Shown: positions 27,101 through 30,100 of the stretch, piece by piece
Layout of the letters: every line of letters starts with the position of its first letter
Position numbering within the stretch: position 1 is the stretch's first letter
From: Escherichia coli
GTDB lineage: Bacteria; Pseudomonadota; Gammaproteobacteria; Enterobacterales; Enterobacteriaceae
Assembly: GCF_003334305.1 (NCBI RefSeq)
Contig: NZ_QOWS01000025.1
DNA length: 64,000 nucleotides
Direction: 5' to 3' (one strand)
Position numbers: made by a program

Positions 27101-30100
27101 GTGGAAGCTGAATTGTGGTCAGCGGCGGTAAAAACAGATGCCCGACGCCAACCAGATTATCAAAGCCCATTACGGCGACATCCTGCGGGATACGTACCCC
27201 CTTCGCCAGGAGAACCTGATAAGCGACAAAGGCTGCGCGATCGTTACCACATATCAGAACATCAAAATCTGGTTTGCCCGGTTTGAAGTGGGCATTGAGT
27301 AAACTTGCGAGATCGGTGTAGTGATCATCACCTGTTGCCATGTGAAATTGTTTCACCTCAGCCAGATCTCGTCCAGCATCACGCCAGGCCTGCTCAAATC
27401 CCTGCCGACGATACCCTGTTGCCAACGCACTTTCCGGTAGCCAGAAGCATAACGGTTGACGATAGCCCGCCGCGAGCAAATGCTGTGTTGATTCATATTG
27501 TGCAGTGTAATCATCAGGGATATAACTGGGTAACGCTGGGTCATCCGCCACACAGTTCGCCAATACAATATTTTCACCATACAGAGACTCAGGCAGCGTG
27601 ATATGTCGCAGCCCCATTGTAGTATAGATAATGCCATCCGGACGGTGGGCAAGCAGCTGACGTGCCGCGCGGGCAGCGTCATCTTCAGAAAAAATATTGA
27701 TTAAAAAACTATTCCAGCCGAACTCGCTGGCGGTTTGCTCAATGGCAAGCAGAATATCAACAGAGAAAGGAGTGGTAGCCGTGTCCTGCGCCAGCACGGC
27801 GAGAGTCGACGGCTTACGTCCTTGAGCGCGCATCTTACGGGCGGAAAGATCAGGAACATAATTCAGGGTCTGGATTGCCTGCAATACGCGGTCACGCGTT
27901 GCAGGACGCACAGATTCTGCATTATGCATCACCCGGGAGACTGTCATCATCGACACTCCCGCCAGGCGTGCGACATCCTTTAATGAAGCCATACCCAAGC
28001 CGTTTGCCGTAAAACGGGCACTGTAGCAGAAACAGACGTCACTGGCGAGATCCAACGATATTCTCAACGCCCTATCACCCAACACGGCAATACAATAAAA
28101 AATAACAATAATTGCCGGATAATTGTACTCAATTCCGCCTCTGTTCTCGCCAACGAGTAACCATATAGGCAAGTAAGTAAAACATGCCAACTGGCATCGC
28201 CAACCTGGAGAAGAAAATATAAATATGGATCATTGTGCTGCCGCTGTATCCCGACATCAGCCCGGAAATTATTGCGATTGCTATCGGTTCAGGTGCAATT
28301 GGCTGCACGATCGTTACGGACTCGCTTTTCTGGCTAGTGAAGCAATATTGCGGCGCTACGCTCAATGAAACATTTAAATACTATACGACAGCGACATTTA
28401 TCGCTTCAGTCGTCGCTCTGGCGGGCACATTCCTGCTGTCATTTATCATCTAAGCGCAAAGAGACGTACTATGGAAAACGCTAAAATGAACTCGCTCATC
28501 GCCCAGTATCCGTTGGTAAAGGAGCTGGTTGCTCTTAAAGAAACCACCTGGTTTAATCCTGGCACGACCTCATTGGCTGAAGGTTTACCTTATGTTGGCC
28601 TGACCGAACAGGATGTTCAGGACGCCCATGCGCGCTTATCCCGTTTTGCACCCTATCTGGCAAAAGCATTTCCTGAAACTGCTGCCACTGGGGGGATTAT
28701 TGAATCAGAACTGGTTGCCATTCCAGCTATGCAAAAACGGCTGGAAAAAGAATATCAGCAACCGATCAGCGGGCAACTGTTACTGAAAAAAGATAGCCAT
28801 TTGCCCATTTCCGGCTCCATAAAAGCACGCGGCGGGATTTATGAAGTCCTGGCACACGCAGAAAAACTGGCTCTGGAAGCGGGGTTGCTGACGCTTGATG
28901 ATGACTACAGCAAACTGCTTTCTCCGGAGTTTAAACAGTTCTTTAGCCAATACAGCATTGCTGTGGGCTCAACCGGAAATCTGGGGTTATCAATCGGCAT
29001 TATGAGCGCCCGCATTGGCTTTAAGGTGACAGTTCATATGTCTGCTGATGCCCGGGCATGGAAAAAAGCGAAACTGCGCAGCCATGGCGTTACGGTCGTG
29101 GAATATGAGCAAGATTATGGTGTTGCCGTCGAGGAAGGACGTAAAGCAGCGCAGTCTGACCCGAACTGTTTCTTTATTGATGACGAAAATTCCCGCACGT
29201 TGTTCCTTGGGTATTCCGTCGCTGGCCAGCGTCTTAAAGCGCAATTTGCCCAGCAAGGCCGTATCGTCGATGCTGATAACCCTCTGTTTGTCTATCTGCC
29301 GTGTGGTGTTGGCGGTGGTCCTGGTGGCGTCGCATTCGGGCTTAAACTGGCGTTTGGCGATCATGTTCACTGCTTTTTTGCCGAACCAACGCACTCCCCT
29401 TGTATGTTGTTAGGCGTCCATACAGGATTACACGATCAGATTTCTGTTCAGGATATTGGTATCGACAACCTTACCGCAGCGGATGGCCTTGCAGTTGGTC
29501 GCGCATCAGGCTTTGTCGGGCGGGCAATGGAGCGTCTGCTGGATGGCTTCTATACCCTTAGCGATCAAACCATGTATGACATGCTTGGCTGGCTGGCGCA
29601 GGAAGAAGGTATTCGTCTTGAACCTTCGGCACTGGCGGGTATGGCCGGACCTCAGCGCGTGTGTGCATCAGTAAGTTACCAACAGATGCACGGTTTCAGC
29701 GCAGAACAACTGCGTAATACCACTCATCTGGTGTGGGCGACGGGAGGTGGAATGGTGCCGGAAGAAGAGATGAATCAATATCTGGCAAAAGGCCGTTAAT
29801 AACGTTTCAACGCAGCATCGCAATCCTTTCCCTGGGTGAGCGATGCTGCCGATGGCGCAGACTTAAGATCCCCGGTCTTACCCGCTATAACCCCCTCCTT
29901 TTATCATCACCCAACGCCTTTCGCTGTAAACGGCGGTTTCGCAAACCAAACCAAAACCGTAAGTAAGATAAAAGCAATAGCCGCCATACGGAAAATCTCA
30001 TTTGCAGAAATAGAAAGTGACTGCTGGGTTATTTCATTATTAATTTCATTAAGAACTCCTGAAAGCGAACCATAGTATTTATCCATAATTTGTGACGATG

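Follow-up and report, generated by a model that had tools for sequence, protein, structure and literature searches.

The segment between cscR and dsdA (positions 27993-28470 of the window, by which we mean the whole 64,000-nucleotide stretch of Escherichia coli DNA that was analysed) is very likely the right-hand junction of a chromosomal csc module (22665-28234) beside an orphaned dsdA gene. On this reading, one ancestral event next to argW exchanged dsdC, the dsdC-dsdX control region and dsdX codons 1-373 for the csc module, and left over a dsdX stump of 72 codons with dsdA intact behind it. The csc/truncated-dsd arrangement in the window is already known, and it is ordinary because about half of the complete E. 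coli genomes have the identical junction: 2659 of 5426 share the breakpoint, O157:H7 EDL933 among them. The csc junction in the window tells the strain type and adds nothing new.

The arrangement has been described from several sides. In E. coli W, csc is inserted between argW and dsdX, and D-serine use is lost (PMC3032704); in EDL933, csc substitutes for dsdC and part of dsdX (Connolly et al. 2015; PMC4366372); wild-type EHEC builds up D-serine and fails to grow on it (PMC7486766, PMC4366372). A sucrose-positive, D-serine-negative phenotype has been published for strains with csc and truncated dsd (PMC3032704, PMC4366372, PMC13054288), a triplex PCR has been designed on the dsd/csc alternative (PMC13054288), and csc has been reported as almost universal across phylogroups B1, D and E (PMC11251922). 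The earlier csc/dsd literature, as far as it is cited in three of these papers, includes Alaeddinoglu & Charles 1979, Jahreis et al. 2002 and Moritz & Welch 2006 (PMC3032704, PMC4366372, PMC11251922). The loss of inducible D-serine uptake and catabolism, which the first-pass annotation had read from the sequence, is the published phenotype of the arrangement (PMC3032704, PMC4366372, PMC7486766). Going by this work, strains with the junction would use sucrose, fail to use D-serine and be inhibited by it. Among the metabolic polymorphisms of E. coli, the alternative of dsd or csc at argW ranks with the better known: sucrose-using intestinal lineages (B1, D, E; EHEC, industrial strain W) lie on one side of it and D-serine-using extraintestinal lineages on the other. 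It has been linked to the niche restriction of LEE-positive pathogens and has served as a PCR marker.

Layout of the csc module and position of the breakpoint

The window and E. coli A7 (NZ_CP028767.1) agree at every base, and for A7 RefSeq gives the order argW, cscB, cscK, cscA, cscR, dsdX pseudogene, dsdA (Table 1). The variable argW-dsd region is bounded on its left by argW, the sole match in an Rfam scan of the whole window, and the csc module starts right after the 3' end of this tRNA gene. Homology to the window ends at 22664 in csc-less genomes and restarts at 22642/22650, the duplicated argW 3' end, in genomes with an argW island. By translation, the argW-cscB spacer contains the decayed remnant of a DUF4942-domain ORF (about 22844-23026) with an in-frame stop in the window; the EDL933 counterpart is annotated as a 60-aa DUF4942 CDS. 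The csc gene set is complete according to ORFs, annotation and family profiles, with order and orientation B(-) K(-) A(+) R(-); cscR and cscA are convergent with a 7-bp gap, and the longest cscA ORF begins at 25547. The 12-bp palindrome GTTAACGTTAAC occurs twice, without mismatch, in the cscK/cscA control region (25446-25457 and 25510-25521), and a pattern search of the 64 kb returned no exact copy outside this intergenic region. Since the csc operators are described as two 12-bp inverted repeats, in a passage that credits Jahreis 2002 (PMC11251922), we regard the palindromes as putative CscR operators and infer from sequence that they match the published ones.

Table 1. Features of the argW-csc-dsdA region, in window coordinates
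Feature	Coordinates	Strand	Evidence
argW tRNA-Arg(CCT)	22590..22664	+	ARAGORN; Rfam tRNA 63.4 bits
argW-cscB spacer	22665..23105	.	translation; alignment to EDL933
cscB, sucrose:H+ symporter, 415 aa	23106..24353	-	ORF list; A7 RefSeq annotation; TIGR00882 594 bits
cscK, fructokinase, 304 aa	24425..25339	-	ORF list; A7 RefSeq annotation; NF006957 507.7 bits, cutoff 450
cscK/cscA divergent control region	25340..25555	.	inverted-repeat search
cscA, sucrose hydrolase (invertase), 477 aa by RefSeq start	25556..26989	+	ORF list; A7 annotation; TIGR01322 479.7 bits
cscR, LacI-family csc repressor, 331 aa	26997..27992	-	translation; A7 annotation; LacI-family profile matches
csc-side non-coding DNA, 242 bp	27993..28234	.	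without homology to K-12
dsdX' pseudogene remnant, DsdX residues 374-445 + stop	28235..28453	+	BLASTP; NF007395; RefSeq pseudo CDS
native 5' region of dsdA, retained	28340..28470	+	sequence reading; promoter position from PMC7486766
dsdA, D-serine ammonia-lyase, 442 aa, intact	28471..29799	+	441/442 identical to K-12 DsdA; TIGR02035

The breakpoint between csc and dsdX falls at 28234/28235 or 28236, which corresponds to codon 374 of K-12 dsdX. The translated stump is identical to K-12 DsdX 374-445 at 71 of 72 residues (BLASTP, E = 5e-48, well outside chance) and covers profile positions 374-445 of 445 in NF007395 (146 bits against a cutoff of 618); RefSeq labels the remnant as a dsdX pseudogene "missing N-terminus". 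Codon 374 is GTG in the window and ATG in K-12, base 28235 being G in most csc+ genomes and A, as in the K-12 ATG, in strain Z1323PEC0010.

The first-pass annotation had described a 76-codon dsdX tail ending 17 bp before dsdA. The sequence bears out the frame, which opens at 28223 after a TAA (28220-28222) and closes with a TAA (28451-28453), leaving 17 bp to the start codon of dsdA, the ATG at 28471. All 76 codons are open, but only 72 stem from dsdX; the first four (ATA TGG ATC ATT, 28223-28234) are csc-side sequence that is open by chance. The cscR-dsdX junction, given as 230 bp, has to be corrected to 242-243 bp of non-dsd sequence by breakpoint mapping. As had been claimed, dsdC and the 5' part of dsdX are missing, but the dsdX share is 373 of 445 codons, or 84%, and not four-fifths. 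When K-12 DsdC, DsdX and the dsdC-to-dsdX(1-1120) DNA were compared with the window (tblastn/blastn), the only match was to DsdX 374-445, at 28235-28450; no dsdC, dsdX 5' part or dsdC-dsdX control region was found in the window. A query with the dsdX tail and dsdA hit one place in the A7 record, which speaks against a second dsdXA copy.

All 11 sampled csc+ genomes have the same breakpoint (94-100% identity), and the junction varies among them by 12- and 13-bp deletions and several substitutions. Across the breakpoint, MAFFT aligns only ATTG with GTTG, a match at chance level. A plasmid origin finds no support in a search of plasmids with the 243-bp junction, which returned only chromosome-sized records filed as plasmids.

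Conservation of dsdA in csc+ genomes

The intactness of dsdA, already noted in the first reading, is borne out by a score of 813.6 bits on TIGR02035 (cutoff 368) as well as by the near-identity to K-12 (Table 1). Full-length dsdA is colinear with the dsdX tail in 5375 of 5426 genomes, and none of the 11 sampled csc+ genomes has an internal stop codon in dsdA or an annotation other than intact. The pN/pS of dsdA is 0.060 in these 11 csc+ genomes, compared with 0.057 in 8 dsd+ genomes. Such equal constraint is unexpected for a gene that is never used, and suggests either conditional expression or a flow of dsd+ alleles. Judging by the alleles, recombination may explain it, most variants being common to both groups.

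It is conceivable, if rather doubtful, that dsdA is functionless in csc+ strains and owes its intactness and low pN/pS to frequent homologous recombination, whether alleles already sieved by selection in dsd+ strains were imported or crossovers in the flanks moved csc into new dsd+ backgrounds. Just 8 dsd+ genomes are enough to contain 87 of the 110 variant dsdA alleles of the 11 csc+ genomes, and 6 of 14 stump variant alleles (5 of the 8 synonymous ones) are common to intact dsdX genes despite the single ancestral breakpoint. However, the dsdA variants private to csc+ genomes are still biased towards synonymous changes (15 synonymous and 8 non-synonymous, where site numbers would give about 1:3.2 under neutrality; the dsd+ genomes have 15:9), "private" being a loose category with only 8 dsd+ genomes in the comparison. 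The near-universality of csc in phylogroups B1, D and E (PMC11251922) also implies that many lineages have long carried the orphan gene, and despite this long carriage the sampled copies are free of internal stops.

That dsdA in csc+ strains is instead conditionally expressed, by sucrose-induced read-through from the cscA promoter (cscAp) or, at a low level that would still suffice physiologically, from the retained promoter at about 28356, and is not a dead-end relic, seems unlikely to us. If true, conditional expression could detoxify micromolar gut D-serine, and it would account for the persistence, in about half of the species, of an orphan dsdA on which purifying selection matches that in dsdCXA+ strains. 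Why the orphan gene is conserved, and whether it is expressed without rearrangement, for instance on sucrose, are questions whose answer would refine and not overturn the picture of intestinal D-serine tolerance.

Transcription towards dsdA

With neither the DsdC activator nor the dsdX promoter that depends on DsdC and CRP, dsdA would be left without an inducible promoter, as experiments in EHEC suggest. From the same experiments it would receive at most weak basal transcription, from an element in the stump. This element has been placed 115 bp upstream of the dsdA ATG (PMC7486766), which maps here to a transcription start at about 28356, within the retained dsdX tail and outside the csc-derived junction. 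The first-pass claim that dsdA transcripts must start in the 230-bp junction or be read through from it is not supported. PMC7486766 is the one source for the promoter at -115 bp, since a literature search for a dsdA promoter inside dsdX gave nothing else relevant. CAATAT/AATATT at 28343-28349 is a possible candidate for the -10 of the element.

The retained native 5' region, 28340-28470, includes the 17 bp between dsdX and dsdA, where the ribosome-binding region lies. Variable sites are scarcer in it than in the 5' part of the stump (Fisher p = 0.003, 8 csc+ genomes), and its third-codon-position variability, 3/37, equals that of the lowest 37-codon window of dsdA (19 genomes; p ~0.04-0.06); it is nearly invariant in the 19 genomes, though only marginally beyond windows inside dsdA. 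The putative dsdA leader (28356-28500) folds no better than shuffled sequences (z = 0.2), and therefore an attenuator or riboswitch is not suggested.

The expression data come from the EHEC TUV93-0/EDL933 lineage, not from A7, with a junction 98.5% identical to that of the window. There, gfp fusions in the wild-type arrangement gave 63-134 RFU, as against 2001 RFU when a deletion had put dsdA under cscAp, and a deletion that removes cscR induced dsdA 33-fold (PMC7486766). dsdA was turned on only when cscR deletions placed cscAp or another upstream promoter ahead of it; the repeat CCGGATAA, found here at 28115-28122, was one end of the LCV10B deletion in EHEC, and a delta-cscR mutant was D-serine tolerant and could be complemented in trans (PMC7486766). 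The gene has been called silent or previously nonfunctional in EHEC (O'Boyle et al. 2020; PMC7486766). An untranscribed dsdA, which the first-pass annotation had named as evidence against its own reading, is largely what these data describe, with transcription that is very low but not strictly zero. By analogy with EHEC, dsdA in the window would be latent: deletions that remove cscR would let cscAp or another upstream promoter read into it and bring back D-serine catabolism.

Such read-through might also occur conditionally, without a deletion, if sucrose lifts CscR repression and cscAp transcripts cross antisense cscR and the junction into dsdA. DsdA would then be co-produced with the enzymes for sucrose, and the intactness of its gene would be accounted for; we consider this quite unlikely. 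There is no plus-strand terminator-like site between the cscA stop and 28418, and therefore read-through from cscA, through the convergent cscR, to dsdA is physically possible. The low pN/pS and the colinearity of dsdA with the stump fit the idea, and our literature search gave no account of dsdA expression under sucrose induction. When cscR is deleted in EHEC, the read density over dsdA follows that over cscA, and D-serine catabolism by a clean delta-cscR mutant depends on cscAp and can be repressed by CscR (PMC7486766). However, the wild-type cscAp-to-dsdA fragment reached only the low RFU values given above (it encodes CscR and was assayed without sucrose), and the authors credit a changed chromosomal context, not derepression alone, for dsdA expression (PMC7486766). 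Sucrose-positive csc strains have, moreover, been reported as unable to use D-serine (PMC3032704, PMC13054288, PMC11251922). The path itself would leave about 1.2 kb of antisense RNA untranslated, and Rho-dependent termination typically acts on RNA of this kind. Direct control of dsdA by CscR through an operator in the junction was considered separately and rejected, since the junction contains no CscR operator with up to 2 mismatches allowed.

The first-pass annotation had raised a possibly novel hybrid promoter. In this reading the fusion of csc and dsdX would have created one in 27993-28235 that drives meaningful constitutive dsdA expression. The junction is AT-rich and has weak plus-strand -10-like hexamers (GATAAT at 28118, TACAAT at 28091), and dsdA is conserved, but we regard the proposal as highly improbable. 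A consensus scan of 27800-28600 found 0 sigma-70-like sites on either strand, and in a weight-matrix scan every plus-strand candidate fell below the median best of random 541-nt pieces of the window (7.7), the best site upstream of dsdA scoring 5.3; both scans are consensus heuristics that also missed the published cscA promoter region, so that the lack of a hit is weak evidence. Fusions of the whole wild-type junction were nearly silent in EHEC, and the wild type accumulates D-serine (PMC7486766, PMC4366372); the deletions and substitutions in the junction among csc+ genomes likewise speak against a promoter. Minus-strand candidates upstream of cscR score 8.9-9.8 in the weight-matrix scan, and 27993-28234 probably carries the cscR promoter on that strand. 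The junction DNA would thus serve cscR on the opposite strand, not dsdA.

Least credible of all is translation of the stump into a small membrane protein, starting with the GTG (or ATG) at 28235: the frame is open from this GTG (ATG in one genome) to the native stop and the peptide past codon 374 is identical in 8 of 11 csc+ genomes, but upstream of the GTG there is a lone GGA and otherwise no Shine-Dalgarno-like sequence, the promoter scans found no promoter, pN/pS is 0.28 in csc+ genomes versus 0.06 in intact dsdX, two genomes have five clustered amino-acid replacements, and most of the synonymous variants have been brought in from alleles of intact dsdX.

Comparison with known loci

As the junction of a csc module with an orphaned dsdA, the locus closely resembles the csc loci of EDL933, E. 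coli W and EC3132, which share its gene order, orientations, breakpoint, 17-bp dsdX-dsdA spacer and intact dsdA. EDL933 runs through the junction without rearrangement relative to the window; the few substitutions there do not predict a functional difference. Outside the junction the two differ, since nothing is inserted at argW in the window and A7, where cscB lies 441 bp from the tRNA, whereas EDL933 has an extra island between argW and csc.

With the intact dsdCXA loci of K-12 and CFT073, the window has in common dsdA, the last 72 dsdX codons, the dsdX-dsdA spacer and, downstream, emrYK-evgAS. Unlike them, it lacks dsdC, the divergent promoter region between dsdC and dsdX, and the first 373 dsdX codons, and therefore also DsdC-dependent D-serine induction and DsdX uptake.

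Cryptic catabolic genes of the bgl type in E. coli have an intact coding sequence and are reactivated by rearrangement, and dsdA can be likened to them. The bgl operon has been mentioned as silenced in E. coli (PMC3032704). Like such genes, dsdA is intact without effective transcription, and a spontaneous rearrangement can supply a promoter (PMC7486766). Unlike bgl, dsdA owes its silence to the physical loss of its activator gene and promoter, not to silencing of the H-NS type, and its activation costs the strain its sucrose genes.

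Gene content and breakpoint of the junction

The stretch 27993-28470 is the standard csc/dsd replacement junction. The first-pass annotation had described an intact dsdA behind a cut-down dsdX, and this observation is confirmed with small corrections. Its open frame, from 28223, directly after a TAA at 28220-28222, to the TAA at 28451-28453, is accurate, as is the 17-bp spacing between the dsdX stop and the dsdA ATG. Complete E. coli genomes without csc align to the window only from 28236 rightward, which corresponds to nucleotide 1121 of K-12 dsdX, the second base of codon 374. 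Base 28235 is probably dsdX-derived as well, judging from the sequence, which would place the breakpoint between 28234 and 28235; Z1323PEC0010, which also carries csc, has ATG at 28235-28237 in place of GTG. From this position it follows that 72 of the 76 open codons, not all of them, are truly dsdX, that the csc-side junction measures 242-243 bp rather than 230 bp, and that the missing 5' part amounts to 84% of dsdX, not four-fifths. The stump protein is identical to K-12 DsdX 374-445 at 71 of 72 residues (M374V is the single change) and scores 146 bits on the DsdX model (cutoff 618), covering profile positions 374-445 only. Searches with K-12 DsdC, the dsdC-dsdX intergenic region and dsdX nucleotides 1-1120 gave no match across the whole window, so the earlier statement that dsdC and the 5' part of dsdX are absent holds.

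DsdA is intact, as had been proposed: it agrees with the K-12 enzyme at 441 of 442 residues and passes the D-serine ammonia-lyase equivalog model, whose cutoff is 368 bits, with 813.6.

Features around the junction (window coordinates)
Feature	Position	Strand	Remark
yfdC	21582-22514	+	
argW tRNA-Arg(CCT)	22590-22664	+	
cscB	23106-24353	-	
cscK	24425-25339	-	
cscA	25556-26989	+	
cscR	26997-27992	-	
non-coding stretch	27993-28234		
dsdX remnant	28235-28453	+	
dsdA	28471-29799	+	442 aa
emrY, emrK	from 29907	-	evgAS further downstream

The window matches E. coli A7, a strain from orangutan faeces, without a mismatch in 64,000 nucleotides (NZ_CP028767.1, 3293736-3357735). The table follows the RefSeq start of cscA (477 aa); the longest ORF begins at ATG 25547 (480 aa). 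The remainder is ordinary core genome, comprising the yfcOPQRSUV fimbrial operon (5472-11933), fadIJ, fadL, emrKY-evgAS, the oxalate genes frc-oxc-yfdVE, ypdABC, the fry PTS genes, glk, mntH and nupC. An Rfam scan of the whole window matched argW only.

Prevalence and origin of the csc module

Of 5426 complete E. coli genomes, 2659 carry the cscR-dsdX'-dsdA junction (27900-28560, at least 80% coverage required), in each case on the chromosome and at 95-100% identity; the other complete genomes have an intact dsdX. In 5375 of the 5426, the stump sequence and a full-length dsdA lie in colinear order. RefSeq labels the stump "D-serine transporter DsdX, incomplete, missing N-terminus" in all inspected genomes that carry the cscBKAR module (csc+), O157:H7 EDL933 included. 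The breakpoint is identical in all 11 sampled csc+ genomes, which were picked to cover the identity range, and this shared breakpoint points to a single ancestral event that spread afterwards.

On the left, homology to csc-less genomes stops at the argW 3' end (22664), and the two homology limits together define the module as 22665-28234. Where an island or prophage occupies argW, a duplicated argW 3' end precedes the module. The last ~15-23 nt (window 22642-22664; about 3730-3755 in the sampled locus L003) are duplicated directly before csc in EDL933, Stx2a phages and others; argW in the window has no integrated element. The argW-cscB spacer (22665-23105) holds a decayed DUF4942-domain ORF (about 22844-23026) with an in-frame stop, whose counterpart in EDL933, among other genomes, is an annotated 60-aa CDS; this ORF resembles the relic of a mobile island once at argW beside csc. 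Four "Escherichia phage" records (ON470594.1, which is H61, ON470608, ON470622 and ON470589) end in csc genes; one extends past cscR, across the junction and into the dsdX stump, and ON470594.1 matches window 22650-28380. These records are either prophage entries with host flank or DNA packaged by an argW prophage in the manner of a specialised transducing phage; such packaging, if true, would be a possible vehicle for csc spread. O145 RM8995-C1 (locus L013, 482-1818), which keeps dsdC and an intact dsdA together with a frameshifted full-length dsdX, represents a different route to inactivation of the dsd locus.

Constraint on dsdA and the dsdX stump

We compared the 11 csc+ genomes with 8 that keep the dsdCXA locus (dsd+). 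The pN/pS of dsdA is 0.060 in csc+ and 0.057 in dsd+, and private variants number 15 synonymous to 8 non-synonymous and 15 to 9, respectively. The neutral expectation for dsdA is set by about 315 synonymous and 1011 non-synonymous sites, so private variants are poor in non-synonymous changes in both groups. All 11 csc+ copies of dsdA are annotated as intact, and none has an internal stop; two are longer by one C-terminal codon (1332 nt). The two types exchange alleles extensively: 87 of 110 csc+ dsdA variant alleles are also found in the dsd+ sample. The dsdA gene looks constrained, but these 19 genomes cannot distinguish genuine selection within csc+ strains from the import of alleles filtered beforehand.

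For the stump, pN/pS is 0.28, against 0.06 for the dsdX 3' end in dsd+ genomes, the higher value being due to two genomes with five clustered replacements, and 5 of its 8 synonymous variant alleles are in common with intact dsdX. The stump is therefore pseudogene-like and partly refreshed by recombination. The five replacements (window 28241-28292) form an allele common to csc+ loci L005 (S1-ISR-02-A) and L019 (CE0007a), whose dsdA has the extra codon and ends ...KGRS.

Transcription of the orphan dsdA

The proposal of a hybrid promoter in the junction is not borne out. A consensus scan of 27800-28600 found no sigma-70-like site on either strand, and the best plus-strand site able to serve dsdA scored 5.3 in a weight-matrix scan, below the median of 7.7 for random 541-nt window pieces (90th percentile 11.0). 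The minus strand upstream of cscR has three candidates (8.9-9.8), which fits a junction that acts as the cscR promoter region. Two exact copies of the 12-bp palindrome GTTAACGTTAAC are present, both in the cscK/cscA intergenic region, and nothing like it, at up to 2 mismatches, lies in the junction. No plus-strand terminator-like hairpin was found from the cscA stop to 28418, consistent with read-through in deletion mutants, and RNA folding of the putative dsdA leader showed nothing out of the ordinary (z = 0.2). Promoter, terminator and operator scans are heuristics in which a missing match is weak evidence, though they agree with the reporter data described below.

Csc+ junctions vary in length at 28055-28066 and 28186-28198: EF7-18-58 and Z1323PEC0010 lack 12 bp, and strain A25 lacks 13 bp, including most of a hairpin. 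A minus-strand GC-containing hairpin with a T-run (28184-28205, some 190-215 nt before the cscR start) could be the leftover terminator of the gene that lay ahead of cscR in the donor. Read back from its ATG, the cscR frame meets no stop for 66 codons, as far as 28190.

Essentially the experiments proposed in the first-pass annotation have been done in EHEC by O'Boyle et al. (2020; PMC7486766). There, dsdA is "silent/previously nonfunctional" in the wild type, and signals of 63-134 RFU were recorded from gfp fusions that keep the wild-type arrangement. When cscR was lost through spontaneous deletions, dsdA mRNA rose 33-fold, the deletion fusions reaching 2001 RFU (driven by the cscA promoter, cscAp) and 257 RFU (driven by z3622p). 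A clean cscR deletion mutant tolerated D-serine, cscR in trans complemented it via repression of cscAp, and in UPEC expression of CscR left dsdCXA unrepressed. One deletion endpoint is the 8-bp repeat CCGGATAA, found in the junction at 28115-28122, and the published dsdA promoter element maps near 28356, within the retained stump. The interval 28340-28470, which overlaps this element, is nearly invariant in csc+ and dsd+ genomes (5/131 variable sites vs 16/104 just upstream, 19 genomes); its synonymous-site variability equals the lowest window inside dsdA, a marginal signal.

We suggest that the junction serves cscR, not dsdA, and that leftover dsdA transcription would arise from this published element inside the stump. 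By analogy with the published junction, which is 98.5% identical, dsdA would be near-silent, the phenotype D-serine-negative, and reactivation would come through deletions that bring in cscAp. The orphan dsdA might conceivably be expressed without rearrangement, for example by sucrose read-through, for which our literature search returned no test.

The predicted loss of inducible D-serine uptake and detoxification is supported both by the absence of dsdC and the DsdC-dependent dsdX promoter and by this literature. It is already known: nearly all strains of phylogroups B1, D and E carry csc, and csc and D-serine use exclude each other (PMC11251922); E. coli W, with csc between argW and dsdX, has lost D-serine use (PMC3032704, with reference to Moritz & Welch 2006 and to Alaeddinoglu & Charles 1979); and the locus is typed by triplex PCR of dsdX, dsdA and cscR (PMC13054288).
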